Shown here piece by piece: positions 26 to 26,098 of a stretch of DNA of 32,000 bases. The DNA comes from an uncultured archaeon (GTDB lineage: Archaea; Asgardarchaeota; Thorarchaeia; Thorarchaeales; Thorarchaeaceae): the NCBI GenBank assembly GCA_964648855.1, contig CAZYLT010000009.1, positions 1-32,000 on the forward strand. Direction: 5' to 3'. Numbering within the stretch: position 1 is the stretch's first letter; every line of letters starts with the position of its first letter. Below the pieces are notes generated by a model. The model did not search any database. It was not told where the DNA came from and saw only the letters and a list, made by a program, of their open reading frames with translations. Position numbers and translations under genes: made by a program.

Positions 26-802
26 ATGGATATTCCCTTTCTTCGGGATTCACTTCTGCAATACAGAGGCTAGTCACCACCTGTTCCTGTATGCGAGTGG
101 TTTCAATTCCCTTTCTTCGGGATTCACTTCTGCAATGTTTGTCGCGAATTCACAAATCCAAGAGTTCGTTACTCTTGGGGGGTTTCAATTCCCTTTCTTC
201 GGGATTCACTTCTGCAATAAACTCAAGGCCTGGTATTGCAGGCATATTAGCCTGTTTCAATTCCCTTTCTTCGGGATTCACTTCTGCAATTGTGACCAGA
301 TATTGGAAGTCTCCGAAGATATTTGAGTTTCAATTCCCTTTCTTCGGGATTCACTTCTGCAATGCAATCATCAGCGACCACCACCACATGGGTTAGGTGT
401 TTCAATTCCCTTTCTTCGGGATTCACTTCTGCAATGGGATGCTGAACTAGCTTTCAGCCTTAAATTGGATAAGTTTCAATTCCCTTTCTTCGGGATTCAC
501 TTCTGCAATTCACGGAAAGGTTGTTTTACAAGGCGGAAGATTTAAAGTTTCAATTCCCTTTCTTCGGGATTCACTTCTGCAATTTTGCTTGGTTTAATGG
601 TTCAGTCTATGGCTCTGAAGTTTCAATTCCCTTTCTTCGGGATTCACTTCTGCAATAAGATTTTGTTTTGGAGATTACGAAAAACCAAATGGGTTTCAAT
701 TCCCTTTCTTCGGGATTCACTTCTGCAATTTGTATTAAATCCTAATTCTCTTCCAGCGGCTCCATGTTTCAATTCCCTTTCTTCGGGATTCACTTCTGCA
801 AT
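26..802 (-). CRISPR. CRISPR array: 11 repeats (10 identical, 1 degenerate trailer) and 10 spacers of 35-45 bp
   Basis: The repeat GTTTCAATTCCCTTTCTTCGGGATTCACTTCTGCAAT (37 bp) starts at 100, 182, 254, 327, 399, 473, 547, 620, 693 and 766, with a degenerate copy at 26-62. The reverse complement ends in the classic Cas6 handle ATTGAAAC, preceded by a TCCC/GGGA stem. With the degenerate repeat at the left end, this indicates minus-strand transcription. Confidence 0.99.
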
Positions 803-1081
803 AGCCCATCAAACATATCAATTTTGCCCATACGAGCCCGCATAACTCCGCTTCCAGGCATGCCATGCGATGCCCCCTCAAACTCGCTCTCATTTATAAA
901 GGGCATCGCAACTCGATAATTTTCATCAGTATAATAAGAAAAATTGACAGTTGGGGTTAGAAGACACATTTGTCCGGCACACCGTTGGATGTCAATACGC
1001 CGAGTTGATACAAGCTCAAAAATGTTATACACGCTCCACACTCTGAAAGTCCTGCTACATGGTGGGCATTGAGGCTTAATA
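803..1081 (-). promoter_or_regulatory. CRISPR leader / divergent promoter region between the array and cas6
   Basis: Non-coding region next to the intact end of the array. It has a TATA-like TTTATAAA at 893-900, an AT-rich tract at about 915-950, and a 10-bp inverted repeat at 866-875/901-910. Confidence 0.75.
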
Positions 1082-1942
1082 ATGATAGGACTGCGCTTTC
1101 ATATAACTAGTCCAATGAAGTTGGACTTGGGTTACACTGGTAGGCCTCTACGCTCTTGGTTCTTAAAGACGGTACAGGACTTCGACCCCGAGCTTAGTAG
1201 TGAGATGCATGCCCAACAAACAATTCGCGATTTTGTTGTTGTCCCACTTCCGCACGATAATCATTTCAAGACCCATTTCAATATGGGCAGTGAATACACA
1301 TTTGGCGTTCGCCTTCTTCGAAAAAAGAGATTCGTTGAGCTCCTGAAACATATTCTGAATCTGAACTATCTGGAGCTTCGTTTACATAATCATGTAATGC
1401 CGATTCGTGCTGTTGACTATAGCATCGATGACCCCCATGAATTGATGAACCAATGGATCTCCTCACCAAATCTTGATGATGCATCTGCAGTACGAATAAG
1501 GATGGCTTTCAACACTCCCGTACAGCTCTCCAAGTCAGACACGGATGCACTTTGCATGTTCCCTCTCCCCGAGAAAGTATTTCCCTCTATTCTTCGCATC
1601 TGGCAGGATTTGGGGTATACGGGTTTCAGGTCGATTGAGGAGTATGTGGAATGGGTTCTCCAGAACGTCTATGTTGCGAGACACAAAACCAAGACAGTAC
1701 CTATAAGGATGGGACCTCACTTGACTGTGATCGGTTTTGTCGGGAAGGTTGAATACCTAGTTCACAATACTGAGTCAATCCCGGCAAAGATGACTGTGGG
1801 ACTGTCGAAGTATTCCGAGTTATGCAATCTTGGTAAGCATCGGACGGCCGGCTTGGGTTCCATATCCACACAGGTCTTTCTTGAGGAAGAATCTGGTGCC
1901 CAATCCCAGCTGCATTTTGTGGAGCCTGCATATCAACAATAA
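1082..1942 (+). CDS. cas6: CRISPR-associated endoribonuclease Cas6
   Basis: C-terminal glycine-rich loop LGKHRTAGLG, plus FPLPEKVFPSILRIW and GFVGKVEY segments typical of type I-D/III-associated Cas6. Adjacent to the array. Confidence 0.93.
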   Translation: MIGLRFHITSPMKLDLGYTGRPLRSWFLKTVQDFDPELSSEMHAQQTIRDFVVVPLPHDNHFKTHFNMGSEYTFGVRLLRKKRFVELLKHILNLNYLELRLHNHVMPIRAVDYSIDDPHELMNQWISSPNLDDASAVRIRMAFNTPVQLSKSDTDALCMFPLPEKVFPSILRIWQDLGYTGFRSIEEYVEWVLQNVYVARHKTKTVPIRMGPHLTVIGFVGKVEYLVHNTESIPAKMTVGLSKYSELCNLGKHRTAGLGSISTQVFLEEESGAQSQLHFVEPAYQQ

Positions 1943-2081
1943 GCTCTAGGCGGGATATACGTGGGTTTGAAGAGGGGAGTATAGCCAATCCAAGAACTGT
2001 GAAAAAAACCAAGAGTCGAGTGACTCAGGATAAACCGTGGTTAGTAAGCCATATAATAGAATAGTACGATGGGACACAGAA

Positions 2082-2786
2082 ATGACGCAAGAGACCCATG
2101 TAGTATACATAGCGACCGTTGGCAGCAGCATAGAGCCCATTCAAAGAGGAATATTCTATGCCTCCCCTGATGTTGTTTACTTGCTTTATGGTTCCAACCC
2201 TCGAATGAAGCAAAGAAATCCTCGAATCGTTGCTGCCAGCGTCAGAGAAAATGTCAAAGCCTTTGGTCTGAAAGAAGTTACACTAAAGGAAATCGACCCA
2301 TTCTCACTAGAGAGTGTGATGACAGAATTCATTGGCATCTGGCAGAATCATGCGAATGATAAGATAATCGCAAACATGACTGGCGGTACGAACATAATGG
2401 CATCTGCCTGTCTGCTTGCAGGTTTTACTATTTCCGCCAAAGTCATTTATGTTAGAGAGCTAGAAAAAGGCGAAGAAGTCCCGCTGGAAGAACAAGTCAT
2501 CACATTGCCAACCCCTAGAATCCCATTTTCCGCTTTGAGCGAAGAAAAGCAACAGATTCTGAGGTTTATCTTCAAGGAAACAGAGGCGGGCAATACTCTA
2601 CTTGAGAAGGCAAATTGCAAAATCGCAGACCACTTGAAGATAACACCGCAAACTGTTTCATATCACGTTAAACGAATGGAACGGAGCGAGCTCATACGAT
2701 GTCAAAAGAAGGGCCGGAATTTGCGTGTGGGACTAACTCCGTCAGGTCTGCTCTTTGCTCGAATGCTTGAGAAATCAACCCAATGA
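2082..2786 (+). CDS. Csa3-like CARF-domain/winged-HTH transcriptional regulator
   Basis: N-terminal Rossmann-like CARF motifs (VYIATVG, IANMTGGT) and a C-terminal wHTH (IADHLKITPQTVSYHVKRME...LTPSG). ATG 2082 is the preferred start; the ORF is open from GTG 2037. Confidence 0.85.
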   Translation: MTQETHVVYIATVGSSIEPIQRGIFYASPDVVYLLYGSNPRMKQRNPRIVAASVRENVKAFGLKEVTLKEIDPFSLESVMTEFIGIWQNHANDKIIANMTGGTNIMASACLLAGFTISAKVIYVRELEKGEEVPLEEQVITLPTPRIPFSALSEEKQQILRFIFKETEAGNTLLEKANCKIADHLKITPQTVSYHVKRMERSELIRCQKKGRNLRVGLTPSGLLFARMLEKSTQ

Positions 2787-2797
2787 TACCGCATTAC

Positions 2798-2840
2798 ATT
2801 TCGATAATATGTCGAAATTTAAGCCGATTCACTTTATAAT
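2798..2840 (+). promoter_or_regulatory. Palindrome ATTTCGA-N7-TCGAAAT followed by TATA-like TTTATAAT, upstream of the helicase cassette
   Basis: Inverted repeat at 2798-2818 and TTTATAAT at 2833-2840, both read directly. The function is inferred. Confidence 0.4.
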
Positions 2841-3105
2841 GTTAGTCAATAAATGTCCTTTATGAATTCAGATAGCCCCGCAAAGAGGGTCGGTAGACAT
2901 AATCATTCCTCTGGAATTCTTAATTCAACGGGATTGTTGCTGCTATACAAACAAAGAACCTACAAATATACTGAATCCATCAGGCTGATTCGTCTATGGG
3001 AGGGTTCTTCCAAGTTGTTACCTAAAGGTGAAGCGAAGAAGCGACAATTGAAGTTAAATCATCTTTCTTGCGACATTCTGTCTGCTCCTTCTCAGAAATG
3101 CATTT

Positions 3106-5856
3106 TTGAAGATTTTGGAGGTGCAACAAGTGGCTGGCTTTGACCCACGCCAGCTTCGTTCCTCAGTAATGGCATACCGCAACCTTCCTGATGTAAAGAC
3201 TACAGATGACTGTTATTACCAGATGCTACGTGTCTCGTTGGGTCTTAAAGATATCATTGAGTATCTAGACCATACCATATACAGCTTTGAGAAAAAATAT
3301 GCAGCACTAAAGGTGCAACTGAATAACCGAAGTGTTCGCGAGTATGTCCGTAGGAACCACAAAAATGCTACATGGGCACGAATCATCAGTGTGAATTCCG
3401 ATGAGAGTGGCAATTGGAAAAAATTGCTTCAAAGGGGCATTTCATTGCTGTCACCTGATGAGGTCAGGAACTCAGATCCGTATCAGGAAAGAATACCGCT
3501 TCAAATGCCTGAAAACCTGAAAAAGCTACTCCGCACCAAAAGGGAGCAATTCAGCTTCTTAGGGTATCCTATTGAGATTCTCGATTTCCATGAATCACAC
3601 AACATGATTCTACTTGCTGAAGTTCCGGAAGCAGCTTTCGGCAATGAAAGGAAGAGGTTTCGGCTCTTCTATATCCCCTCAACGTATCAGTGGAGGAGAT
3701 ATCGTGAAGCGCTGTACAATTTCATAAATGAGCCCTCCAAGAATCTTAATCCTTTGTTGAATCTGTTCCAGAGAACCTCCTCTGTGAAATGGCCCGACGT
3801 TCCTAGTACCAGATTCAAGAAGAGCGACTGGTTGTTTCTTAAAGACCAAGATAATCCGTCCACAGAGAAGCAGCGTAGATTTGTGAGAAGAGCTGTTAAG
3901 ACTCCGGATTTCGCCCTTCTCTGGGGGCCACCAGGAGCAGGCAAGACTTACACGATAATGGAGCTGATCTACCAAGCAGTAAGGCGAGGGATGAGGGTGC
4001 TCTTCTGTGCTTCTACTCATGTTGCCATCGACCAGGCATTGGAACGGCTATTGACAGAACCCAAGGCGCTAGAAGAGATAGTTCCATTGAGGATTGGCGC
4101 GTCTGAAAAGATTAGCAGTTTGATTAGAGATTACCAGCTGGAGCGAATTGCCCCGCATTATAGAAAGGAGATTGTGGATGAACTAAGCGCCAAATCGAAT
4201 CGAAGCAAGGCACAAAATCAGTGGCTTAGAACCTTGAATTCTGAGGATGGAAAGAGCTGGGTGGACAGGATGCTGGTTGAGTCAGCAAATCTAGTCTGTG
4301 GAACGACAGTTGGGATATTGCAGCATCCCGAAATTAAGGGCGCCAGTCATTCGGAATCAAAGCCTGTTTATGATATTCTCATCATAGATGAGGCAAGTAA
4401 GACCACCTTTCATGAGTTCTTAGTTCCTGCGCATTTCGCACAACGTTGGATTCTTTGTGGTGACCCCCGACAGCTTTCACCTCATGTTGATGCAGATAGC
4501 ATTGCGGCTACTATAAAGACGCTACTGGATAACCAAGAACAGAGAGATTGTTGCATTGATATCTACTCAGTGGCTAAACAGCATAGATATCCAATTCAGC
4601 TCCTATTGATATCTGATGACGAAATCAAAGGAAATCTTTACAATTTACAGGCGGAGAGCAAAGGGCTCCATACCTCCATGTTGGATGACGATACTGATTT
4701 GGGAAACAAAAAAATCTTGACCGAAATATTGTCCTCTTCAGTCATTATCAGTGACGAATCGAAGGCAAAGACAATATCCAAATATTTGCCTGGCTCAATA
4801 GAAATGATTCGAGGCAATCAATCACTTCTTGGACCAGAGTTCAAAGCCAAGCGTGAATATCTAAGAAATCAGGGTCAACTATGGACTCCAAGAGAAAGAA
4901 ACTGGGAGTTAGAGCTTTCGATTATTCTAGGTCAAGAGTTCTTCACCAGAACTACAAAAGACGGCTCTTTTGAAAAATATGGGGAGAGAAAGCAACTCCT
5001 GATTCCGGAATTCATTGAAGCAGATGAATTCGGTGAGAATCTGCAGCCTTCTACAAAATCTGCAGAACAATTTGAGGAGCAGCTGAACAGAGTACGGCTC
5101 TGCGCATACCCAAGCGTGCTGGAATTACTTGTTGAGGGCTTCCGTCCAGAGGCTGATTTTGATAGCACGCTGAACCGGGGATTTCCTGAAGATGCGCTAG
5201 AGAATCGGCTGATAAAATTGCAGTACCAATTTCGCATGCATCCTGAAATGTCATCTTTTCCTAGAACTCATATCTATGACTCAGAGCTGCTAAGAGATGC
5301 TCCGAATGTTGAAAGCAAACGAAGTTGGCCTTATCAAAGATACACAGAAAGGGCCATCTGGATGGATGTGACTGGTGATTGCGAAAATTATACCAACAAA
5401 GATGAAGCACATGCATTGGTCAAGGAGCTAAAAGAGTTCTTGGACTGGGCGGCACTAAATCCGCGACCAGATGGAGAACGCTGGGAAGTTGCAGTTCTTT
5501 CTTTCTATAACAACCAAATTGATTGCATTCTTCAACTCATCCAATCTGATAATACTCTGACCTACGACAAGTCAGACCTCTACACTGCTGTTAATGCTCA
5601 GATAAGAATAGGATCCGTGGATAGCATTCAAGGAAGAGAGGCTGATATTGTATTTATTAGCTTCGTGAGAAATGGATATTCCGGGATTGGTTTTCTCAAT
5701 AGCCCAAATCGTTTGAATGTTGCAATCACTCGTGGAAGATATCAGTTAGTACTAGTGGGCAACAAACGTGGTCTTGCAGAGCAAAATGAATCTGAATTGC
5801 TACGCCGACTAGCAGAGCTACCCGATGACACACCTTTTGGAGATGATGAGGAATGA
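3106..5856 (+). CDS. SF1 helicase, UPF1/DNA2/NAM7-like (AAA_11/AAA_12)
   Basis: Motifs GPPGAGKT, ASTHVAID, IIDEAS, GDPRQL, QFRMHP, SVDSIQGRE and NRLNVAITR. The start is uncertain (TTG 3106 or ATG 3169). Confidence 0.93.
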   Translation: MKILEVQQVAGFDPRQLRSSVMAYRNLPDVKTTDDCYYQMLRVSLGLKDIIEYLDHTIYSFEKKYAALKVQLNNRSVREYVRRNHKNATWARIISVNSDESGNWKKLLQRGISLLSPDEVRNSDPYQERIPLQMPENLKKLLRTKREQFSFLGYPIEILDFHESHNMILLAEVPEAAFGNERKRFRLFYIPSTYQWRRYREALYNFINEPSKNLNPLLNLFQRTSSVKWPDVPSTRFKKSDWLFLKDQDNPSTEKQRRFVRRAVKTPDFALLWGPPGAGKTYTIMELIYQAVRRGMRVLFCASTHVAIDQALERLLTEPKALEEIVPLRIGASEKISSLIRDYQLERIAPHYRKEIVDELSAKSNRSKAQNQWLRTLNSEDGKSWVDRMLVESANLVCGTTVGILQHPEIKGASHSESKPVYDILIIDEASKTTFHEFLVPAHFAQRWILCGDPRQLSPHVDADSIAATIKTLLDNQEQRDCCIDIYSVAKQHRYPIQLLLISDDEIKGNLYNLQAESKGLHTSMLDDDTDLGNKKILTEILSSSVIISDESKAKTISKYLPGSIEMIRGNQSLLGPEFKAKREYLRNQGQLWTPRERNWELELSIILGQEFFTRTTKDGSFEKYGERKQLLIPEFIEADEFGENLQPSTKSAEQFEEQLNRVRLCAYPSVLELLVEGFRPEADFDSTLNRGFPEDALENRLIKLQYQFRMHPEMSSFPRTHIYDSELLRDAPNVESKRSWPYQRYTERAIWMDVTGDCENYTNKDEAHALVKELKEFLDWAALNPRPDGERWEVAVLSFYNNQIDCILQLIQSDNTLTYDKSDLYTAVNAQIRIGSVDSIQGREADIVFISFVRNGYSGIGFLNSPNRLNVAITRGRYQLVLVGNKRGLAEQNESELLRRLAELPDDTPFGDDEE

Positions 5857-6968
5857 GCAAGAGCGAGAAAATGAATTTCAGTAGAGAATTAACGGTTCAC
5901 ATATGGGATATTAGGCTGTCCATCCAGACATATGAAGAACATCCTGTGTGGTTGGCAATACTTCAGCTTGCTCATGAAAATTCTGACGTTGTGAATGCGA
6001 AGCTTGTTCACAAGGAACTTCTGGCTGAGAAGACACCTCTGCTCCAGGCAGAGCTATTATTGAATCGGGTTTACAAAGAAGGGCTTCTTGACAAGAATTA
6101 TTGTCTAACTGATGATGGTGTCGATGCATTGGATAAGGAACTAGTGCCAACTAGATTGACCGGAATGTTCACTGTAAGCTTCGTGGATGACCCGTTAATA
6201 CCCCAAGTCATCCTGTCTATTGATGGCCCTCATGAAGCCAGATTGGATGGCAGGGAATTAGGGCATAAAGGAGGAGCTAGATATGAAATCAATGGCACTC
6301 GAGAGGTTCCTAACCTCATCGAACAAGTCGTAGATTATCCGATCTTGTTGAAAGAAACCTCTGAATCAGTACTAGTTAAAGATGTTGACAGATATGGCCT
6401 TCCACAGAATACTTCCAGATGTGACTTAACCCTTCAAATAGGTGTCAATAATGAACCAATTTTACGAATAGGAAAGCCAGTGGATAGAAGATTACCATTG
6501 CCGGAGAGTTTTGACATTAGCTACAAGAAGGCATTGGACTTGTTGCTTAGCACACTAGGCGAAGATTGGCAAAGGACGCGAGAAATTATCCTCGTGGAAT
6601 TCGAAAGCACCAACTCAACGGAAAGAAGGGCCTTTCGGAAATCATTCAAAGTAAGCAAACCTGAGCTTCCCAATTTCGGGTCTTTTCGAAGCATGAAAAC
6701 TCCCGCTGTGGATATTGAACCCAGGAGCAAAACTGATGCGAGCAAGTGGTATTACTGGTTGATAGTTGATGAGCTTCCGAATCAGTACCTTCGACAATCT
6801 GCATTCACCAAGCATGCGTCTGATACGCGAAAGAAATTCCCGAAGAAGTTCGAGATTAAGATACCAAAGCAAGAGGAAGTTGCGAAGACTCTCTTCGAGC
6901 GGGATGAAACAAATAAGGCCTGGCTGCTTCAGGCTCCCCTCGACTTGCTACCGGGTGATGCAAGATGA
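5853..6968 (+). CDS. Uncharacterised 371-aa protein with a probable N-terminal winged helix
   Basis: Long ORF with ATGA overlaps to both neighbours. The segment ELLLNRVYKEGLLDKNYCLTDDG resembles a wHTH recognition helix and wing. Confidence 0.8.
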   Translation: MSKSEKMNFSRELTVHIWDIRLSIQTYEEHPVWLAILQLAHENSDVVNAKLVHKELLAEKTPLLQAELLLNRVYKEGLLDKNYCLTDDGVDALDKELVPTRLTGMFTVSFVDDPLIPQVILSIDGPHEARLDGRELGHKGGARYEINGTREVPNLIEQVVDYPILLKETSESVLVKDVDRYGLPQNTSRCDLTLQIGVNNEPILRIGKPVDRRLPLPESFDISYKKALDLLLSTLGEDWQRTREIILVEFESTNSTERRAFRKSFKVSKPELPNFGSFRSMKTPAVDIEPRSKTDASKWYYWLIVDELPNQYLRQSAFTKHASDTRKKFPKKFEIKIPKQEEVAKTLFERDETNKAWLLQAPLDLLPGDAR

Positions 6969-8458
6969 CCAACCCATTTGTTCAGGACAGGACTAAGCTG
7001 GTATCACAAATAGACCAAACCATTGGCCCCGCGTGGTTTTCGCGAGATTCTGACAACTGGGAAAAAGAAACCAGCCCCCCGGTTTTGATAGGGGGTCATG
7101 GAGGTGGCACGCTAAAATCGGAGATACTGGATATTGTCGCAGGGGCTGAGCAAATTATAGCGATATGTTCATTTTTGATTGGTGATGATAATTTGATTGA
7201 AAGTATCTTGGATGCCGCTAGGAGGGGCGTCCGTGTTTACATTCTTACTGCCTCCAAGGACCGCATTGCTCAGGACAACTTGGCGGAGGGGTCTTTGCAG
7301 AAAAAGGTGCAGATAGAAAATGAGCAAATGTTGAATAAAATCTGTCGAAAGACGCTCCTCCGTGATGCCCAGGTTCATGCCAAGTTCATCTTGTCGGACC
7401 CTGCCAAAAAGACACGCAAAGGAGTCCTATCTACGGCAAACTTCACTTACCATGCTCTTCTTCATCCTGAAATGGGTCTAACTCTAGGTGATGACCAGAT
7501 TGAGGAACTCTTCATGGTTTTCTGTTCGGCTTGGTGGGACCTCGGTGAAAGAGAATTGCTGAAACCTAATATGCTGACAGACGCACGCAAAATTGAACCA
7601 CCAGTTTCAGGAGAGGTATCCAAGATAATCAATAATCTCCAAGCTTTCGCTCTAACGTATCGCAATAGAGTAACGAAATTGAGGTCGGAAATAAGCCGTC
7701 TAGTGTTGAATGCTCAGGACGAATTATTTCTTGCCACCTACGGGGTATCAGATGATGATCCGATATTCGAAGATATTCTTGCCCAATCATCGGTGAAAAA
7801 TGTCAAAATCCTTGTCAGACCTCGGGTAAAGACGACTCCTTTGTTGCACCAACTTAAAGAGAATGGCGCTGAAGTCAGAGGTTTGGACGATTTGCATGCG
7901 AAAGTTGTGTGCACAAAGACAAGTCGGGGTGTTGAGGCTCTTCTCATGACCGCAAACCTTGAGAAAATAAGTCTTCAACAGGGTTTTGAGGTTGGCCTGT
8001 TAACCAGTGGTTCTATTGCTGAGCAGATTATTGAACTCATGGACCATTGGTGGGAGAACGCCAACTGGGAATACTCGATTTCTAGGAAACTAGGAGAACA
8101 TTTAGGACCATATCGGGTTCTCAAACAGAATGAATTTGACGAACGAGAGGTAATTGAATCAAAAACCCTACCTCTTGGAGAAATAACTATTGAAGACCTA
8201 TCGATGCTCGATTCATTCATGCCAGATTTTCCGAAAGTGGATGACGTACAAAAGGTGGAATATAGTTGGAGAACCATTCCTAGAGAACTTCCTAAGAAAT
8301 GTAAGTCTTACAATATCGATAATTTGGCTCCATACATAGACGTCTGGAAATGCAGGAAGAATCAGATTTTCATTAGTGTATCCAGCCCCGAAGAGCTTTC
8401 ATCTGTTCTTGATACAGAAGACCTGCCCAATGTTCCCATTGTGTATCGTGCCAAATGA
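6965..8458 (+). CDS. Phospholipase D-superfamily protein with two PLD domains, putative nuclease
   Basis: Motifs HAKFILSD...STANFT and HAKVVCTK...MTANLE, plus AARRGVRVYIL. No signal peptide is evident. Confidence 0.88.
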   Translation: MTNPFVQDRTKLVSQIDQTIGPAWFSRDSDNWEKETSPPVLIGGHGGGTLKSEILDIVAGAEQIIAICSFLIGDDNLIESILDAARRGVRVYILTASKDRIAQDNLAEGSLQKKVQIENEQMLNKICRKTLLRDAQVHAKFILSDPAKKTRKGVLSTANFTYHALLHPEMGLTLGDDQIEELFMVFCSAWWDLGERELLKPNMLTDARKIEPPVSGEVSKIINNLQAFALTYRNRVTKLRSEISRLVLNAQDELFLATYGVSDDDPIFEDILAQSSVKNVKILVRPRVKTTPLLHQLKENGAEVRGLDDLHAKVVCTKTSRGVEALLMTANLEKISLQQGFEVGLLTSGSIAEQIIELMDHWWENANWEYSISRKLGEHLGPYRVLKQNEFDEREVIESKTLPLGEITIEDLSMLDSFMPDFPKVDDVQKVEYSWRTIPRELPKKCKSYNIDNLAPYIDVWKCRKNQIFISVSSPEELSSVLDTEDLPNVPIVYRAK

Positions 8459-8597
8459 TTCTTAGTGCTCGGATGCTTAACACGGTTGGAGGGTCATATG
8501 TTTGGAGGTATAATCAGGCGGAAAAAGGAAACGATAGCTACCTTCCAACGAGCAACAGTTATATTTTCAAACAAAGAATAAACATAAAGTGTTCCTA

Positions 8598-8753
8598 ATG
8601 TGCAAGAAAAAAGAAAAAATAGAAGGTCTAGAGGAGGCGGTTTACGAAATGGGTGCAAAATCTCATGGTATCGACACTGAAGGTCTCTCACACAAAAGAA
8701 TCAAGGAAATTGTTGATGCTCGGGATAGAGATAAAATCGATTATTCTTATTGA
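8598..8753 (+). CDS. Putative 51-aa small protein (not in the ORF track)
   Basis: ATG 8598 to TGA 8753 encodes MCKKKEKIEGLEEAVYEMGAKSHGIDTEGLSHKRIKEIVDARDRDKIDYSY. The composition is protein-like and it lies in an otherwise empty 460-bp gap. Confidence 0.45.
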   Translation: MCKKKEKIEGLEEAVYEMGAKSHGIDTEGLSHKRIKEIVDARDRDKIDYSY

Positions 8754-8918
8754 TTCGAGTTTTTGATGCCAAATCAAAATGAAAAATTAGGCCTACTGGT
8801 ATGTAAGCCCCTCGGCGGTATTCGATATTAAGTCTTGATGAGTAAATGAAATCTTGTTTCATGTATGCTATCGATATTCGCGTAATGGGCTATTGGAATG
8901 ACCCCACGTAGTGTTCTT

Positions 8919-11243
8919 TCATTGAGTGGAACGAACCTGCCCGTCTTCAACTTCAATGATGTGATCAATGTATTCTTCCAAACCTTCAACATGGCTAATT
9001 ATGATTATTTGCTCGAAGCTTTCAGAAAGCACCGTATTTGTTAGATTCATAATTCCCTCTCTTCTGATCATGTCACTGCTTCCAAGTGGCTCATCAAGAA
9101 AGAGAAAATCTGGTTTCACATATTTCCTAAATGGCAATAAGGACAGCGCGAATGCTATCCTCATTGCAAGGAGGAATTGGTCTTCCGTACCGCCGCTAAA
9201 CATTTCCTTCTCCTGGAATTCACCTGCGTCCTCACTCCAAACCTCAAGATTGTAGTCATCCACCAGTCGGACTGCTTTGTAGCGGTTGTCTGTAATGACT
9301 GGCAGGATTTGTTGCATATGTCGCTCAACACTCGGTCTAACTCTCTGCCTCAAATTCCTGCTTGTTTCTTCCAGGGCCTCTTTGACTATTCCTGAGACCT
9401 CAGCCTCTTCTATCAAATGCTTGACTTTAGCAACTTGTTCATTATATTTTTCATGTACTCCTTCATGATCCCTCAGATATTCTTCTAGTTCTCCAATTCT
9501 GATTTTTAGTCCCTTGATTTCTTGCTTTAGACCTGCAGCTCTTGCCGTTAGTGAAGTGACCTCATCTTGAGTATTTTCAAGCAGTTCTTTGGAGAATTCA
9601 ATCGATTTTGGCAGTTCTGGAAATATTACTTCTGTAAGCTCATCTTGCTTCTTATCCTTCTCTCTTTCCAAGCTAGATATTTCAGTTTGTATTTCTGGTT
9701 TCTCATCGAGCTGCTCATCGATTTGCTTAATCCTAGAATGGAGATTCTTCCTTTTCTCGGCAGTGTCTTCATATTTCTCCAAAATATCTGAAATCACGTC
9801 AATATTCAGTTCGGCATGCTCCGGCTTCAACTCTGAAGGAAGCTTCGAAATTTTCGGTTCGATACTATCTATCTCAGCCTCCAATTCTCCATTTATCCTG
9901 GTAATTTCTTCTCGAATGTCCAGAAGCGAATCCCACTGTGCTTTTTGTCGCTCCTTCTGTTTGAGGTACTTGAGGTTTTTCTCGGAAAGACTGAGTTTTC
10001 TGAGATATCGGTACAGCAAATACACCATAATAATGACAAATGGGATGGAACCAAGAATCAGAAGTTGGTTGATTGATACCCCCAATATTAGGCAGATGAC
10101 GGTAAAAAGGGCTGAAACGCCAATCATTCTCAAATTAATCGATGAGGATATTATCTCCTGTTCATGAGTAGTGGGTTTCAAATTCTCGGCTTCTTTCTTT
10201 TCTTTTTGCCACCCATTCTTTTGCTTCGCTTCACTCTGCGTGACAATCCTCAGTTCCTGCTCCAATCCTTCATAGCTGGACTTTGCCTCTTCTATCTGTG
10301 GAATCTCAGGAGTGGCTGATCGAATGTATTCAAGTTCGTCAAAATCAGCTTGTATTTCCTTTCTCTCAGTTTCCAGATCTGCTAACTTATCGAGGCGCTT
10401 TTCGTGAATATCGATTTGCTTCTTTATGCTCTCAATTTCTCCGTTTATAGAATCTTGTTTTTCCCTCGCGTCATCATACTTCTCTAATCTCTTAAGGAGA
10501 GATTGTTTTTCGTCTAATTCAGCTCTGGTACTCTTGAGTTGCTTTTTCAGGTCCTCTACCGATATTATTTTTTCGTTCTTCTCCCCCATGAATTCGTCAA
10601 ATTGGTCACGTGCCTGTAGCAGCGTTTCTTTCTTATTCTCCTCTGAATCAATTTTTCCTCCTCCAGCCTCTCTCTTGCCAAGAAGAATCCGCCTGATATC
10701 TTTCACTCTGTCAAGAATCTTATTGAAGTGCTCAAGATTAAGAAAGACATTGATGATGTCCTTCCTTTTTCCTGCCCTCAACTCAACAAGCTTTCCCAAC
10801 TCCTTCTGAGCAACGATGCAACTCGAAACCAACTCGTGATATGAAATATCACCCATAAGTTGCATAACGGTTTCATTTACTTTAGTAACAGACTGGACTC
10901 CCAATGGCTTGGATTTGCGATTTGGCAAGATCTCATCTATTCTTGACTTGCTAGACCGTTTGCTTGATCTAAATATCTCCCTTGTGACTTGGAAGGTTCT
11001 ATCGCCGATTTGAAATGTAAGCTGAACAAAAGCTCGTGAGGAATTGTGTTCAATCAACTTCGCATGAGCCGGATTTGTTGTTGGTCGAAGAACGTATGTA
11101 TAGAGTGCGTACAGTATAGCCTCCATTATGGTCGATTTTCCGCTTTCATTTAGCCCTCGAATCAGTGTGACCCCTTTCTCAAATTTCACTGTTTCGTCAC
11201 GGAGCGATTTGAAATTAATAGCGCGGAGTTCCTTAAGAATCAA
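8919..11243 (-). CDS. rad50: Rad50/SbcC-family ATPase; no zinc hook, central hydrophobic hairpin
   Basis: Walker A GLNESGKST, long coiled coils, signature FSGG, Walker B/D-loop LFLDEPLGSSD and H-loop ISH. Lies downstream of mre11. Confidence 0.9.
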   Translation of the reverse strand: MILKELRAINFKSLRDETVKFEKGVTLIRGLNESGKSTIMEAILYALYTYVLRPTTNPAHAKLIEHNSSRAFVQLTFQIGDRTFQVTREIFRSSKRSSKSRIDEILPNRKSKPLGVQSVTKVNETVMQLMGDISYHELVSSCIVAQKELGKLVELRAGKRKDIINVFLNLEHFNKILDRVKDIRRILLGKREAGGGKIDSEENKKETLLQARDQFDEFMGEKNEKIISVEDLKKQLKSTRAELDEKQSLLKRLEKYDDAREKQDSINGEIESIKKQIDIHEKRLDKLADLETERKEIQADFDELEYIRSATPEIPQIEEAKSSYEGLEQELRIVTQSEAKQKNGWQKEKKEAENLKPTTHEQEIISSSINLRMIGVSALFTVICLILGVSINQLLILGSIPFVIIMVYLLYRYLRKLSLSEKNLKYLKQKERQKAQWDSLLDIREEITRINGELEAEIDSIEPKISKLPSELKPEHAELNIDVISDILEKYEDTAEKRKNLHSRIKQIDEQLDEKPEIQTEISSLEREKDKKQDELTEVIFPELPKSIEFSKELLENTQDEVTSLTARAAGLKQEIKGLKIRIGELEEYLRDHEGVHEKYNEQVAKVKHLIEEAEVSGIVKEALEETSRNLRQRVRPSVERHMQQILPVITDNRYKAVRLVDDYNLEVWSEDAGEFQEKEMFSGGTEDQFLLAMRIAFALSLLPFRKYVKPDFLFLDEPLGSSDMIRREGIMNLTNTVLSESFEQIIIISHVEGLEEYIDHIIEVEDGQVRSTQ

Positions 11244-12396
11244 ACCTTGAAACCTCCTCCATCAACTCAATACATTTGCTCTTTGCTTGCTCTACAATCG
11301 CCCTTGAATCCTCATCCATATCCTTCATTTTGGCATCGAAATAGGACAGAAGTTCCTCATCGGGGTCAATGGCTGAAATAGGTTCAATATCCCTTACCCC
11401 CTCCACCTTCAGAGAATCAGTATCTTCCAGAATGACTCTGAAGCAGAGATCATCACCCATTCTCTGTAATTTGGATCTCTTATATGTGGCAAGAGTTTCA
11501 ACAGCCACAACTCCCTCAATCCTTATTCTTAGAATAAGCTCTGGATTTGCGACCTCCTCAATCTCTTGTTCTACAATGTTTGTAATATTGTCTCCATCTT
11601 TTACTTTTATGAGAAGTGTCTTCATTTCACGGCAGTTGAGAGGAATCCGTTTGACTTCCGGTATTTCATTATCTTCGAATTCAAGAATAGTGAAGCTCTT
11701 CTCTCCTCCTTCTTCATTAAAGCTCACTCTCTCGGTGCTTCCAGGAATGACTACCAAAGAATCCCCAATTCGTTTGTGCTGAGCGGAATGATAGTGTCCA
11801 GCTGCTATCAGTTGATACCCGACAGGAATCTGATCAGGTGAAACAGTCACTTCATCACCTATGAATCCACTAAAGCCAATAATCGGATAATGAAGCAGCA
11901 ATATGTTCAAATCCCCATCAGGAGGGGGCATTTCCACATCCAACGGATTATCTTCTGCCTGTAGTGTTGGATTGAAACCTATCCCGACCACTCGGACTCT
12001 CATTCCATCCACTTGGATGTCCACTGCCCTAGGTTGTGATGGATTTTCAAAATATGTCACATTGCCAGATTCCCCGTGAGTTTGCAAAGGGGAAACGCCC
12101 GTAACAATGCTCCTAGGTGTATCATGGTGCCCTGTGACAAGAAAGGATGACGCCCCATTCTCTTTAAGTCGTCGGAACTGTTTCATTACCCAGGCTCTGG
12201 TGGAATTACTAGGCCGATTGTGGTCGAAAAGATCTCCGCAAATAAGGAAAACATCAACTTCGTTTTCAATGGCATATTCAACGATGGTTTTGAAGTTCCT
12301 TTGATAATCACGTTGTCGCTCGTTTTTATTCGTACCAAAGTTCTTGCTGGGACTATCCAAATGATTATCGCCCGTTATGAGTATCTTGACAGTCAT
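11233..12396 (-). CDS. mre11: Mre11/SbcD metallophosphoesterase nuclease
   Basis: Motifs GDNHLD, GDLFD, GHHD, LLLH, GHYH and PGSTER, plus operon context. Confidence 0.93.
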   Translation of the reverse strand: MTVKILITGDNHLDSPSKNFGTNKNERQRDYQRNFKTIVEYAIENEVDVFLICGDLFDHNRPSNSTRAWVMKQFRRLKENGASSFLVTGHHDTPRSIVTGVSPLQTHGESGNVTYFENPSQPRAVDIQVDGMRVRVVGIGFNPTLQAEDNPLDVEMPPPDGDLNILLLHYPIIGFSGFIGDEVTVSPDQIPVGYQLIAAGHYHSAQHKRIGDSLVVIPGSTERVSFNEEGGEKSFTILEFEDNEIPEVKRIPLNCREMKTLLIKVKDGDNITNIVEQEIEEVANPELILRIRIEGVVAVETLATYKRSKLQRMGDDLCFRVILEDTDSLKVEGVRDIEPISAIDPDEELLSYFDAKMKDMDEDSRAIVEQAKSKCIELMEEVSRFDS

Positions 12397-14033
12397 TCTA
12401 CTTCATCTCCGAATGCTCCAGTAAAGGCGCTTGAATTGGATGTAGTTTCATCAATTTCCCTGTCTATCGACACTTCCCGCCTAGCCGATTTCAATGCCTC
12501 AACAACGTCGATATCTGCTCCCCCCTCGTGTGTTTTCCGCTTTCGAATCTTTATCATGACTGGGGCCTTGCTGACTGGACCCAAGACCACTGCCTCGCCT
12601 GGATTGAATCCCGGCAAATTCTTCAGCATGCCCTCGCTCATTCTCTCTGAGCTCCTGATGACCGCTTCTTGGTCTTTTGGATTGGTTAATTTCATTATGA
12701 TTTGACTATTGCACTGTGAGAGCGTATCTGGATGGATTTTCGATGGCCGCTGAGATATTACAATAAGAAAAATGCCGAATTTGCGCCCCTCAGCAGCGAT
12801 TCTCTTGATTATGGGACTTGAACGAGTTGTATCGTTCGCTGGTATGAAGTTGTGGGCTTCTTCTATCACCACGAAAACAGGATGAGCATATTCACCATTC
12901 AGTAGTGCGTGATATGTATCGCTCAACAATTTTGATACAATGTAGTCCGTGCTAAACGCATTGAGTCCCGAAAGATCCATGATTGATACCTGCATTGGGG
13001 AAAGAATTCTCTCAGTTGGGGTCGATGTACTACTGAAGACCCTCATCCGTGACAATATGCGTACATATCTCAATGCAGATTGGATCGGTGATTTTTCGCT
13101 TTGCTTATCTGCTGATTGGAGATTCTCTTCCAACTTGCTCACCAAGTCCTGCGGAGAGAAAATCGTGTCTGAATCGCGAAGCTCCTGTAATGCCGTTGAT
13201 ACCGTTTCCCTGATTACTTTGTATCCTTCCTGAATGTTGGCAATTCGAAAAATCTCTTCATCCGATAAATCTGAGAATGCTATGGTGTAATCCTCCATAT
13301 TGCCCACATCCTTTTCACTATAGCGTCCAGTGCTTGCGGGGTTTCTGAATACAACCAATCTATCGCTTAATTCATGTCTTGATTTGTCTACACTCATTCC
13401 CATGAGGGCATAATCGGCATGTGGGTCAACGACAATTATGCTTCCCCCCTTTTCCAGTAGCTCCTCAATCAGGACTCCAGCACAATAGCTCTTTCCTGCT
13501 CCCGTCTGAGCTATAATTGCCATATGCCTTCTTAGTCCCGAAACAGTCAGACCCACAGAAACCCTAGGCCGAGTAATGAGATTTCCAACTGTCAGTGACT
13601 CATCACGAGGATAAGAGTAGAATTTCTCCAGGAAATCTCTCGGTGCGGAATAAACCTCGGTCCCTGGCGTGATAGAACGCCGTGGGATTAAGACATCTGA
13701 TGTGATAGGATGTATATAACCCAATACCTGCGCAGACCCGTATGTTCGAAGGTCACCAATATTTGCTTCTTGAATCTTCGTGAGCGCTTCAAAGCTCACC
13801 AGATGCTTGAGCGCATCGCTCGATGACATGACTGCTTCGACTTGAGCTAGAACATCAGTTTCCGTGATTTTTTCATCAATCATTGCTTCTGACTTAACTA
13901 TCAGGTAGTCAAGTTTCGACGGACAAAGATCTTTAGTAGACGAAAAGACAAATGAAGTTGAAGTTGTTTCACCTACAACAATTCCTATTCGTTCGTTTTC
14001 ATGGATAGTAGACACGGCTGTAACCCCGCTCAA
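12393..14033 (-). CDS. herA: HerA ATPase/DNA translocase
   Basis: N-terminal HAS-barrel-like region, Walker A AQTGAGKS, VDPHADY, EEAHNF and EGRKFG...SQRP. Confidence 0.94.
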   Translation of the reverse strand: MSGVTAVSTIHENERIGIVVGETTSTSFVFSSTKDLCPSKLDYLIVKSEAMIDEKITETDVLAQVEAVMSSSDALKHLVSFEALTKIQEANIGDLRTYGSAQVLGYIHPITSDVLIPRRSITPGTEVYSAPRDFLEKFYSYPRDESLTVGNLITRPRVSVGLTVSGLRRHMAIIAQTGAGKSYCAGVLIEELLEKGGSIIVVDPHADYALMGMSVDKSRHELSDRLVVFRNPASTGRYSEKDVGNMEDYTIAFSDLSDEEIFRIANIQEGYKVIRETVSTALQELRDSDTIFSPQDLVSKLEENLQSADKQSEKSPIQSALRYVRILSRMRVFSSTSTPTERILSPMQVSIMDLSGLNAFSTDYIVSKLLSDTYHALLNGEYAHPVFVVIEEAHNFIPANDTTRSSPIIKRIAAEGRKFGIFLIVISQRPSKIHPDTLSQCNSQIIMKLTNPKDQEAVIRSSERMSEGMLKNLPGFNPGEAVVLGPVSKAPVMIKIRKRKTHEGGADIDVVEALKSARREVSIDREIDETTSNSSAFTGAFGDEVE

Positions 14034-15336
14034 ATACTATTCTTGTTCCCAATTCTCTTTCAAGAGTCTGCCGATATAAATTATCGACCGTTTGACGCCC
14101 CAAACGGGCAATCTCATCGGCACGCTTAAGCCAAATATTGTAGTTCTGAAGCCCACCATACCCTCCTCTCAGAACACTCAGCACCTCATCTACGTTGCAA
14201 TTCATTCTTTCTGGCTTGGGTGGTTCCCATATTTTGGTGTCAATGCCCACCATCCATCCTGGTATGTCAACTCGAAGCGGTGTATCTTGCGGATGTAGTT
14301 TTATGTGGAATGAAACTATTGCAGGTAGGTCCCGCAATTGAGTCAGGATTTTCGTAGCCTTCATCTTGAACTCGGCCTCGATTTCCGACTCCGCCAATGC
14401 CATTTTGAATCGGGTTCTTAGATACTTGGTAGGTTCCCGAAATGAATTAGCAAGAGAAAGCCTTGTGTTTTTCATCATACTGAGGACAAGTGGACTAGTA
14501 TATCCCCTACCACGAAAGAGCAATTGAATCAACACATGATCCGACAGACTATCCGTAGCCAGCTTAACAAGTTGCATGATTCTGCTTTGAACCGGCTTTT
14601 TGTGATCGGATAATTTGGTTTTTAATGCAGATATATCGACTTGCTCTCTCTTGGCACTCAGTACTGCTTCTTGTATGTGATCTACCGACTCCAAGCTAAG
14701 CCTCGTGTTTGAGTTCTTCAATACTTTATGAATTGTATCTAGAAGTGTAAAACGCAGGAAGTGTCTAGCCCGACTATCCTTGCTAACTGCGATTATTCCG
14801 ATATCGTTCTCTCTGCAATACTGAAGCAGTTCTAGTGTTGTTTCGAAGTAATCGAGCAGGCAGAATCGATCATTGCTAATGCCAGATTCAACTGGTAGAT
14901 GCTGCAGCCTTCCAAAGAGGGAACCATCCAGAAGCAGCCATTCTCCTCCCTCGTTTCTTAGAGCTTGAAGGGCAGCGGCATGTTCTATGGTTTCCATTTT
15001 AATCGAAACATACCATGCTAGTTCCTGTTCTCTCACTCTTGCGGGAGCAAAACCAGTATCCAGTACACGTGTTTTCGAGTTCTCCTGCAATGCGATTGCT
15101 CTGACTATCCACCATAGTCGGCCGTCCCATAGGGTGCGCGTTGCTAAGCTACCATCTGTTCCGATAACACCCTTTGCAGGTTTTTCGTCTTTATCATCCA
15201 ATGGATTCCAGTGGGATAATGCATTCTCTCTAATCGTGTCAAGCTTGTACTTGTTAATACTTCCGTCCATCTCCTCGCTCCAAATCTTTTGCTTGGACCT
15301 AACAATTTCTACGAGTTCGCTCAAATATTCTGGCAT
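13999..15336 (-). CDS. nurA: NurA nuclease
   Basis: Acidic motifs GTDGS and LLDGS, plus VSKDS. Immediately upstream of herA. Confidence 0.88.
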   Translation of the reverse strand: MPEYLSELVEIVRSKQKIWSEEMDGSINKYKLDTIRENALSHWNPLDDKDEKPAKGVIGTDGSLATRTLWDGRLWWIVRAIALQENSKTRVLDTGFAPARVREQELAWYVSIKMETIEHAAALQALRNEGGEWLLLDGSLFGRLQHLPVESGISNDRFCLLDYFETTLELLQYCRENDIGIIAVSKDSRARHFLRFTLLDTIHKVLKNSNTRLSLESVDHIQEAVLSAKREQVDISALKTKLSDHKKPVQSRIMQLVKLATDSLSDHVLIQLLFRGRGYTSPLVLSMMKNTRLSLANSFREPTKYLRTRFKMALAESEIEAEFKMKATKILTQLRDLPAIVSFHIKLHPQDTPLRVDIPGWMVGIDTKIWEPPKPERMNCNVDEVLSVLRGGYGGLQNYNIWLKRADEIARLGRQTVDNLYRQTLERELGTRIVFERGYSRVYYP

Positions 15337-15683
15337 TGTTCACCCACCACGCATGAAACTTGTGCGCTACGGTTGGAGAATAGCACTTGTGGCAATAAAG
15401 TTACTTCACTCGGAGTATGCGAGCTCATTGGGTCAGACTGATATCTTCCTTATGCCAGAGTTGCTTCTGTTTTCCGAGCTAAGTCAATATAGGAAACATA
15501 CTTTCAGATATCTCTCTGGGTGGTTAGTGTGTACTCCATAGGACTCCATGACTGAGGAAGATACTAGTCCTAGATATTGGAGTTCGATAACTGCATCGTT
15601 GAGCGAATTGGGTTCTCGTCGATGCACCGACCCCAAAGATTACTTACAAACAGCTCGGAGCTGGGGCAGGCGCGAGAGAAAGG

Positions 15684-17669
15684 ATGTCAGACTTCAAGCT
15701 ACATGCACCGTTCGAACCTACCGGTGACCAACCACAGGCGATTGATAAACTAGTGCAGGGTATCGAAGACGGACATCGCTTTCAAACATTGCTCGGCGTC
15801 ACCGGTTCCGGAAAGACCTTCACTATGGCCAATGTGGTTGAGAAATACAATCGACCAACGCTGGTTATCTCACATAACAAGACTTTGGCTGCTCAATTAG
15901 CTTCTGAATACAAGCAATTCTTCCCTACGAATGGAGTAGAGTATTATGTTAGCTATTATGACTGGTATGTTCCAGAGGCCTACGTGCCATCGAAGGACAT
16001 GTACATCGAAAAAGAGGCTGACATCAATGCCGAGATTGAGCGGCTCCGCCACTCGACAACGCACGCTCTTCGGTCCCGAAGCGATGTGCTGGTTGTAGCC
16101 TCAGTGTCCTGCATCTACGGAATCGGAAATCCAGAGGAATATGATCACTTCAGGATGTTTCTTGAGGTTGGTAGAGAGATAGACCGTAGAACTCTGCTCG
16201 AACGGCTGGTTGAGATGCAGTATGACCGGAACGATATGGAGGTTGAGCCGGGCGTCTTCCGCGTTAGAGGTGACGTGATTGAAGTCCAACCTGCTGCATC
16301 AAGGAATAGGGTACGCATAGAGCTCGATGGAAACATGATTGACCGGTTGTCTATCATTGATTCTATCTCGTCGAAGCGTCTGTCTAATGAACACTGGTTT
16401 GAGCTGTATCCGGCCCGACATCACATGGCTCGATATGAGAAGGTGATGGCGGCACTGGATCCCATAGAACAGGAAATGGAAGAACGTGTGGAGAAACTAA
16501 AGAAACAAGGCAAGCTTGTTGAGGCTGACCGATTGCGGAGACGCACGCTCTATGATATGGAGATGTTGCGAGAGACTGGTCATTGCCAGGGGATTGAGAA
16601 TTATTCGCGTCATATCGATGGGCGGTCAGAGGGCCAGAAGCCCTATACACTCCTCGATTACTTCCCTGACGATTTTCTCATGATTATCGATGAGTCTCAT
16701 ATGACCATTCCCCAAATCGGCGGAATGTATCATGGAGACCGCTCGAGAAAGCAAAACCTGATTGATTACGGATTCAGACTGCCATCTGCTTTCGATAATC
16801 GCCCAACGAGGTTTGAAGAGTTTGAGAACTACATGCAACATGTCATCTTTACCAGTGCAACTCCTGGTAAATATGAGAGAAAGGTGAGCACACAGATTGT
16901 TGAGCAGCTTCTGCGACCTACTGGACTGGTGGATCCTGAGATTACAGTGAAGCCAATCGAGAACCAGGTTGACAGTCTAATTGCTGAGATAAACAAGACA
17001 GTTGGTCAAGGACACCGAGTTCTTGTCACCACACTTACGAAGAAGACTGCGGAGATGCTAACAGAGTATCTAATTGAAGCCGGAGTGATGGCTCGTTATC
17101 TCCACTCGGACATAGGTACTGTGGAGAGAATCCAGATTATCAGAGAGCTTCGTCAGGGCAAGTTCGATGTACTGGTTGGTATCAACCTCCTACGTGAGGG
17201 CTTGGACCTTCCCGAGGTTGGCTTAGTCGCAATCCTAGATGCTGACAAAGAAGGCTTCCTACGAACAGACTGGGCGCTCATTCAGACTATGGGTAGGGCA
17301 GCACGGAACATAGATGGCCGTGTGCTTCTCTATGCAGACCATGTATCATCCGCCATGCAGTCGGCAATAGACGAAACAAATCGAAGACGCAGATATCAAA
17401 TGAAGTACAATGAAGAACAGAATGTAACACCTCAAAGCATCAAGAAGGAGATCAAAGACATCGCACAGTCAATGCCAGTCAAGCTAACGAAGAAACAGAC
17501 GAAAGTGACTGATTATGACCCCGTCGAAGTGGATGAAATGACGGACTACATACTGGAACTTGAAGAACAGATGAAAGAGTCAGCTCGGAACCTTGAGTTC
17601 GAGAAGGCTGCAGCCTTGCGAGACAAGATTGCAGGGCTACGAAAGCAAATCGAGGACTTTCAACAATGA
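15684..17669 (+). CDS. uvrB: Excinuclease ABC subunit B
   Basis: GDQP, GVTGSGKT, the beta-hairpin YYDWYVPEAYVP, DESH, GINLLREGLD and a C-terminal UVR domain. Confidence 0.98.
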   Translation: MSDFKLHAPFEPTGDQPQAIDKLVQGIEDGHRFQTLLGVTGSGKTFTMANVVEKYNRPTLVISHNKTLAAQLASEYKQFFPTNGVEYYVSYYDWYVPEAYVPSKDMYIEKEADINAEIERLRHSTTHALRSRSDVLVVASVSCIYGIGNPEEYDHFRMFLEVGREIDRRTLLERLVEMQYDRNDMEVEPGVFRVRGDVIEVQPAASRNRVRIELDGNMIDRLSIIDSISSKRLSNEHWFELYPARHHMARYEKVMAALDPIEQEMEERVEKLKKQGKLVEADRLRRRTLYDMEMLRETGHCQGIENYSRHIDGRSEGQKPYTLLDYFPDDFLMIIDESHMTIPQIGGMYHGDRSRKQNLIDYGFRLPSAFDNRPTRFEEFENYMQHVIFTSATPGKYERKVSTQIVEQLLRPTGLVDPEITVKPIENQVDSLIAEINKTVGQGHRVLVTTLTKKTAEMLTEYLIEAGVMARYLHSDIGTVERIQIIRELRQGKFDVLVGINLLREGLDLPEVGLVAILDADKEGFLRTDWALIQTMGRAARNIDGRVLLYADHVSSAMQSAIDETNRRRRYQMKYNEEQNVTPQSIKKEIKDIAQSMPVKLTKKQTKVTDYDPVEVDEMTDYILELEEQMKESARNLEFEKAAALRDKIAGLRKQIEDFQQ

Positions 17670-25997: not shown

Positions 25998-26098
25998 GGT
26001 GATATTCCTCGAAATTCCATTATTGCGTAATGCTATCATAAGGTATAAGTGATTCCGTGGATGCCTTCCTTTCAACGTTGGAAGAGGATGTTAGAAAT

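Follow-up and report, generated by a model that had tools for sequence, protein, structure and literature searches.

A CRISPR array, a cas6 gene, a gene for a CARF protein with a winged helix-turn-helix (CARF-wHTH) and three genes for a UPF1-like helicase, a protein that we call X and a PLD-family nuclease follow one another at the left end of a contig from an uncultured archaeon of the Thorarchaeaceae. Does the helicase-X-PLD trio work for the CRISPR system next to it, or is it part of a defense system of its own? We analyzed this question in the window, that is, the whole stretch of 32,000 nucleotides (nt) at bases 1-32000 of contig C9, and in the assembly to which it belongs (3.11 Mb, 62 contigs, 94.6% complete). 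An initial annotation had listed the array, cas6, the CARF-wHTH gene and three genes coupled by ATGA overlaps. Every one of these elements is present in the window, and both overlaps, of helicase with X (5853-5856) and of X with PLD (6965-6968), were verified.

The same annotation had regarded the cassette as a possible CRISPR module or, equally, as an independent neighbor in a defense island, and it is the latter that fits the window locus best. We consider it probable that the locus consists of two separate defense units lying side by side, namely a CARF-regulated cassette (2082-8458) and a cas1-cas2-array-cas6 unit without effector genes. Their adjacency is most likely a result of defense-island clustering. 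The cassette is a Mokosh-like system of helicase, adaptor and PLD nuclease under CARF control, and its copy in the window is viperin-less.

The Cassette in Related Genomes

The regulator, helicase, X and PLD of the window are 49-71% identical to those of a co-linear cassette at five Thorarchaeota metagenome loci. The gene order CARF-wHTH, radical-SAM gene, helicase, X, PLD was found in five distinct loci (L016, L017, L019, L021 and L024), and the radical-SAM gene of the five relatives encodes a prokaryotic viperin (PADLOC pVip, 5e-83). The five closest cassette loci are without an array or cas gene. A convergent gene pair, about 345 and 167 amino acids (aa) long, often trails the cassette in the relatives and corresponds to a split CARF_m1 plus PIN-like protein.

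Searched against 1.84 billion proteins, a profile of X gave 446 representative hits at E <= 0.001, and almost all of these are full-length; the ten relatives with about 50% identity all came from Thorarchaeota-type metagenomes. X has a patchy distribution: 23 of 400 Asgard genomes carry it, as do 19 of 85 genera, but only 2 of the 85 other genomes in the family to which the window belongs. At 23 further loci, the helicase-X-PLD order was invariant (PLD was detected in 22), and X also lies between helicase and PLD in L049 and L050. The 23 loci carry pVip in 12 cases, CARF-wHTH in 13 and CARF_m1 in 10, and within 10 kb none of them has an array, Cas6 or Cas1. Among 29 other cassette loci, likewise, none showed an array, cas6 or cas1 at this distance. 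When Cmr and type I-D proteins were used as single-sequence phmmer queries, the further loci were negative save for a weak match to a Cas3-like helicase (L034, 8.3e-10), which we take to be a generic helicase.

In relatives, the cassette is surrounded by genes for integrases and transposases, by restriction-modification and BREX-like genes and by other defense genes, but never by rad50. At L016, a helicase of 1130 aa (12982-16374) adjoins the cassette and is a match to PDC-S68, a candidate system in PADLOC (1027 bits, with E given as 0); it is followed by a Cas4-like PD-(D/E)XK gene.

The Regulator and Its Candidate Operator

We found that the regulator belongs to the cassette and not to CRISPR, because it is 68-71% identical to the regulators of CRISPR-free Thorarchaeota cassettes versus 26% to the csa3 product of the type I-D operon in its own genome. 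The initial annotation had called it a Csa3-like regulator and listed it with the array and Cas6; its assignment to CRISPR must be given up, as its orthologs sit in CRISPR-free cassettes. The protein matches HFX_2341_N (1.5e-11) and HTH_24/MarR in Pfam, CARF3 in PADLOC (5.5e-36) and cas_HTH in NCBIfam (1.3e-11), the last with 44 bits against a cut-off of 60. With Csa3 of Sulfolobales type I-A loci it has in common an N-terminal CARF domain and a C-terminal winged helix, but it differs in its score below that cut-off, in its CRISPR-free orthologs and in its low identity to the type I-D csa3. Csa3 sits in and regulates a cas locus, which is not the case for this regulator.

Between the stop codon of the regulator and the TATA-like box of the operon there is a perfect palindrome (Table 1), which we regard as a candidate operator of CARF-wHTH. 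It occurs once in the window, and no copy was found near any CRISPR locus of the genome. CARF-wHTH probably binds this palindrome, and it may gate the downstream operon upon a putative nucleotide signal.

Loss of Viperin in the Window

In the close relatives, viperin is the head gene of the operon (the pVip mentioned above), whereas the window keeps a remnant of 96 aa without the Cys motif, which the initial annotation had not mentioned. The ATG of this remnant is aligned with the viperin start codon of the relatives, and their viperin profile matches the remnant open reading frame (ORF) at viperin residues 242-271 only. At the DNA level, homology to the relatives ends at about 2836, some 50 nt beyond the regulator stop, and resumes at 2947 in the 3′ end of viperin, from where it extends on into the helicase gene. 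These three observations indicate that by an internal deletion the gene lost about 680 nt, among them the radical-SAM core with its CxxxCxxC motif (CNYxCxFC in the relatives), and retained its start codon and its coupling with the helicase gene.

Helicase, X and PLD Proteins

The helicase matches AAA_11/AAA_12 in Pfam and MkoA in PADLOC (PDLC03920, 1.5e-82). It retains an intact Walker A (GPPGAGKT), DEA and motif VI, and its closest solved relatives are UPF1 (the best, 8e-35), IGHMBP2, Sen1 and DNA2; no known family was matched by the N-terminal part of about 250 aa. For the PLD protein, the closest solved relatives are nuclease-type PLD enzymes, among them NucT, Nuc, BfiI and PLD3, and residues H138, K140, D145, N159, H311, K313 and N331 are invariant among 26 homologs.

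Pfam, NCBIfam and PADLOC contain no family that X matches. Its model, built from a 114-sequence alignment, reached a mean predicted local distance difference test (pLDDT) score of 93 and a predicted template modeling (pTM) score of 0.83. The winged helix that the initial annotation had assigned to the middle gene is indeed present in X, and VIA-align aligned it for example with 2x4h_A (Z 8.7, root-mean-square deviation 1.6 Å, 65 residues aligned). Foldseek found nothing against the PDB at E <= 0.001 with either the shallow or the deep model, and VIA-align recovered the winged helix only. Outside the winged helix, the modeled X is thus without a solved relative, which does not in itself establish a novel fold. 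Structure-based matches in the Atlas, with TM scores of 0.77-0.80, were clusters of bacterial hypothetical proteins.

When X and PLD were co-folded, the score was 0.82, and the best of three controls scored 0.00. Of 80 solved complexes, 58 attain that mark, as do 2 of 110 mismatched pairs, although these counts apply only roughly because our co-fold used our own alignments. The X-PLD runs share at least 84% of their contacts, with a partner pLDDT of at least 82, and the predicted interface places X 309-369, including the family-conserved W357 and D364, against PLD 64-221. The co-fold supports binding but falls short of showing it, and X is accordingly a predicted PLD-binding adaptor, whose C-terminal helices would dock on the nuclease. 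By analogy with Mokosh, the helicase, X and PLD may form a complex that would track along foreign RNA or RNA/DNA intermediates and cut them.

Comparison with Mokosh

Millman et al. (bioRxiv 10.1101/2022.05.11.491447) have studied type I Mokosh, which consists of the MkoA helicase and the MkoB PLD protein, and found that both the site of ATP binding and the active site of PLD are required for defense. The initial annotation had compared the helicase and PLD pairing with Mokosh, and the MkoA and UPF1 matches given above bear this out. Both systems combine a UPF1-like COG1112 superfamily 1 (SF1) helicase with a separate PLD nuclease in one operon. However, no serine/threonine kinase domain was found in the window helicase among the Pfam, NCBIfam and PADLOC hits, and of the 1112 positions in the MkoA profile its 908 aa cover only 572-1081. 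The PLD protein is weakly matched by MkoB (1.9e-7) and better by DrmC (1.8e-23). Moreover, the window has the conserved third gene X between helicase and PLD, and the cassette adds the CARF-wHTH regulator, to which the relatives add viperin and the CARF+PIN pair. Having no kinase domain and three genes instead of two, the cassette lacks two defining features of type I Mokosh.

Mokosh and viperin have each been reported in Asgard archaea, separately (PMC11291487), and the same paper remarked on the domain homology of Mokosh and the piRNA machinery. In the literature searched, we found no paper on the helicase-X-PLD arrangement with CARF control and viperin, nor any on the "PLuB system" after which an NCBIfam hit is named. 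The pairing of a UPF1-like helicase with a PLD protein is the logic of Mokosh and also of eukaryotic piRNA biogenesis; here Asgard archaea combine it with a conserved third subunit and CARF control, and often also with viperin.

The CRISPR Unit and the Type I-D System

The array consists of ten identical repeats and an eleventh (26-62) whose left 7 nt are degenerate, and its ten spacers, 35-45 nt long, are all unique. A small hairpin precedes the 8-nt tail of the repeat. On contig C1 (1-309), which begins inside a near-identical copy of the leader, we found a mini-array (C1:62-199) with one perfect and one degenerate copy of the window repeat and one spacer. The leader copy ahead of this mini-array indicates that the leader of the window array is on the cas6 side, that the array is read leftwards and that the degenerate repeat marks the trailer end. 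C1 was also considered as a continuation of the window array and rejected, since it is a separate two-repeat mini-array behind its leader copy.

The initial annotation had found no Cas1/2 gene, which is true inside the window. However, the last 55 nt of contig C42 are the first 55 nt of the window contig, and this overlap places cas1 (C42:7749-8777) and cas2 (C42:8771-9073) 78 nt to the left of the array. None of cas10d, cas7d, cas5d and cas3 was found in the window or on C42. The whole genome has only two cas6 and two cas1 genes. A search for homologs of the window Cas6 returned a single relative, 52% identical, and because this lies on a 2.5-kb contig no gene context could be learned from it. 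The window repeat is absent from 85 other genomes of the same family, the array spacers have no match elsewhere in the same genome, and the three leader-proximal spacers have no exact 28-nt match in IMG/VR. Farther left, C42 carries further genes of defense type at 1177-7607, namely for a CARF_m1-like (215 aa), a PIN_4-like (363 aa) and a 428-aa NYN-domain protein and then, immediately before cas1-cas2, separate E2, E1 (ThiF) and JAB genes. The CARF_m1 and PIN-like pair there is distant (27%) from the one trailing the cassette in relatives.

A complete type I-D operon (cas1, cas2, cas4, cas10d, cas11d, cas7d, cas5d, cas3, cas6, csa1 and csa3) is located on contig C32 and is the sole effector found in the genome. 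It is flanked by two long arrays on contigs C33 and C11, whose repeats differ but are related, and overlapping contig ends give the order C33 array, C32, reversed C11 array. At its left end, C32 encodes a protein of 535 aa in which two wHTH regions resemble Csa3/CasR. At 24-28 of their 37 nt the C33 and C11 repeats agree with the window repeat, and like it they have a hairpin followed by a tail. The window unit and the type I-D system thus have in common 37-nt repeats, the small hairpin, the ATTGAAA(C/G) tail and related cas6 genes (36% identity), but the window locus is without cas10d, cas7d, cas5d and cas3, and its repeats are unlike those of the operon at 9-13 of 37 positions. CRISPR RNAs (crRNAs) of the window array would bear the 5′ handle ATTGAAAC, versus ATTGAAAG for the arrays flanking the type I-D operon, and would most likely be used by the type I-D complex. 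The CRISPR unit is effector-less yet apparently maintained, as judged from its identical repeats and duplicated leader. It may inform how satellite arrays share effectors.

Relation to Type III Signaling

In another genome of the same family (G313; GCA_021498125.1), the trio is found in a row with a complete set of type III-B effector genes: cmr1, cas10/cmr2, cmr3, cmr4, cmr5, cmr6, helicase, X, PLD (L030, G313:C1:863900-883800, at 222-12023; also L052). The gap between cmr6 and the helicase gene is 14 nt, and both have the same orientation. A csa3-type gene is divergent upstream, and a PIN-like plus CARF_m1 pair is convergent downstream. Cas10 of G313 is 621 aa long and keeps GGDD but has no HD domain, and no array was found within about 38 kb of the trio. 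A metagenome scan with the X protein of G313 found nothing, and a scan of genome contigs returned one Thorarchaeota contig. Among about 29 other loci, the single-sequence phmmer searches detected no second case of the trio beside type III effector genes; G313 is the one operon-like fusion found. This row is a concrete candidate source of the CARF signal, and the question of the signal is now testable.

Several observations speak for a closer tie between the trio and CRISPR signaling than two separate units would require. Most trio loci also contain CARF genes, and together with the row in G313 these indicate a link to type III signaling somewhere in the family, which could extend to the window. 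RAMP genes were found in 11 of 23 X-positive versus 79 of 377 X-negative Asgard genomes, a comparison that is uncorrected for relatedness. No match to RAMP, Csm1, Cmr2, Cas10 palm2 or SMODS (CD-NTase) was found in the window genome, and since this genome is 94.6% complete an effector or cyclase may have been missed. All of cas6, regulator and trio point the same way in the window, and just 139 nt separate cas6 from the regulator. The use of window crRNAs by the type I-D complex is itself a prediction, and the difference of 9-13 positions between the repeats counts on the same side.

It is possible, and we put it forward tentatively, that the trio family is coupled to type III signaling in some lineages. 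A broader proposal would make the trio a new family of type III or cyclic-oligoadenylate-coupled helicase-nuclease effectors, which would be the DNA- or RNA-degrading arm of the HD-less Cmr complex in G313 and would answer the same signaling as stand-alone CARF-regulated copies elsewhere, including the window; we regard this as rather doubtful. Like type III ancillary effectors (Csm6/Csx1, Can1/Card1 and CARF-PIN), the trio has CARF sensors beside it and, in G313, stands after cmr1-6 with a GGDD Cas10. Unlike them, none of its three proteins has a CARF or SAVED domain, and most cassette loci, as well as the window genome, show no type III system. The initial annotation had suggested a link to cyclic-oligoadenylate signaling; the cassette family is tied to CARF signaling and includes the type III-B row in G313, but no cyclase was found in the window genome.

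Alternative Explanations

The trio might still be an ancillary or effector arm of CRISPR at this locus, for example a Cas3-like helicase-nuclease that takes its signals or guide RNAs from the cas1-cas2-array-cas6 unit beside it. Such an arm would fit the neighboring, co-oriented position of the two in the window, the row in G313 with its HD-less GGDD Cas10 and the CARF genes at most loci. However, orthologs of the regulator stand in CRISPR-free cassettes, 0 of 29 other loci have an array, cas6 or cas1, the operator has no copy near the CRISPR loci, the genome is without a Cas10 palm, RAMP or SMODS match, and the cassette itself contains no Cas7/Cas5-like gene for binding an RNA guide. We conclude that such an arm is very unlikely, as is a functional meaning of the adjacency of cassette and CRISPR unit. 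The initial annotation had named two findings that would count against its CRISPR module. One, that homologous cassettes do not co-occur with cas6 or arrays, is what we found within 10 kb at the 29 other loci. The other, a complete operon elsewhere using the window repeat, was found in part, since the type I-D operon exists but its repeats are related and not the same.

The cassette could also be a decaying remnant that lost its defense function together with viperin, and in favor of this the deletion took a radical-SAM core that all five closest relatives retain. Nevertheless, the four remaining genes are full-length, the helicase motifs and both HKD motifs are intact, and the operator, the TATA-like box and the translational coupling have all been kept. 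Viperin-less versions are also common (11 of the 23 further loci plus L050), and layouts of CARF-wHTH and trio without viperin occur naturally in L050 and L028. Decay is thus quite unlikely. It is extremely improbable that the three proteins are housekeeping factors of RNA surveillance or DNA repair tied to the rad50-mre11-herA-nurA and uvr operons. The trio does directly abut this block of repair genes, and UPF1, Sen1 and DNA2 are among the closest solved helicases, but its patchy spread through Asgard genomes and even within the same family does not fit such a role, and neither do the mobile and defense genes that surround it in relatives.

Locus Layout and Neighboring Genes

The coordinates of the features are collected in Table 1.

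Table 1. Features of the CRISPR unit and the cassette in the window.
Feature	Position	Strand	Remarks
CRISPR array	26..802	-	11 repeats of 37 nt, 10 spacers; minus-strand repeat end ATTGAAAC
CRISPR leader	803..945	-	about 140 nt nearly identical to the sequence ahead of the C1 mini-array
cas6 (286 aa)	1082..1942	+	Pfam CRISPR_Cas6 1.8e-11; PADLOC Cas6 5.8e-18
CARF-wHTH regulator (234 aa)	2082..2786	+	ORF 2037-2786, real start ATG 2082; Csa3-like CARF3 clade
Palindrome ATTTCGA-N7-TCGAAAT	2798..2818	.	perfect 7+7; candidate operator; same place in 5 homologous loci (six including the window)
TATA-like box TTTATAAT	2833-2840	.	after the palindrome
Viperin (pVip) remnant (96 aa)	2853..3143	+	original ATG and last ~190 nt of the gene kept
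UPF1-like SF1B helicase (908 aa)	3130..5856	+	ORF 3106-5856; real start GTG 3130, GGAGGTG ribosome-binding site
Protein X (371 aa)	5853..6968	+	MarR/PadR-type winged helix (aa 26-97) inserted in a fold without PDB match
PLD-family nuclease (497 aa)	6965..8458	+	two HKD-type motifs; PLDc_2 1.1e-16

To the right of the cassette lie a nurA-herA-mre11-rad50 operon, in which rad50 and mre11 are on the minus strand, and then a uvrB-uvrA-uvrA-uvrC operon. These DNA-repair operons mark the edge of the island. In the second of them, uvrA is present in two full-length tandem copies (window 17666-23421). A second PLD-family protein, which has two domains and is unrelated to the PLD of the cassette, is encoded far from it at window 26057-27748 (563 aa, PLDc_2 5.6e-42).

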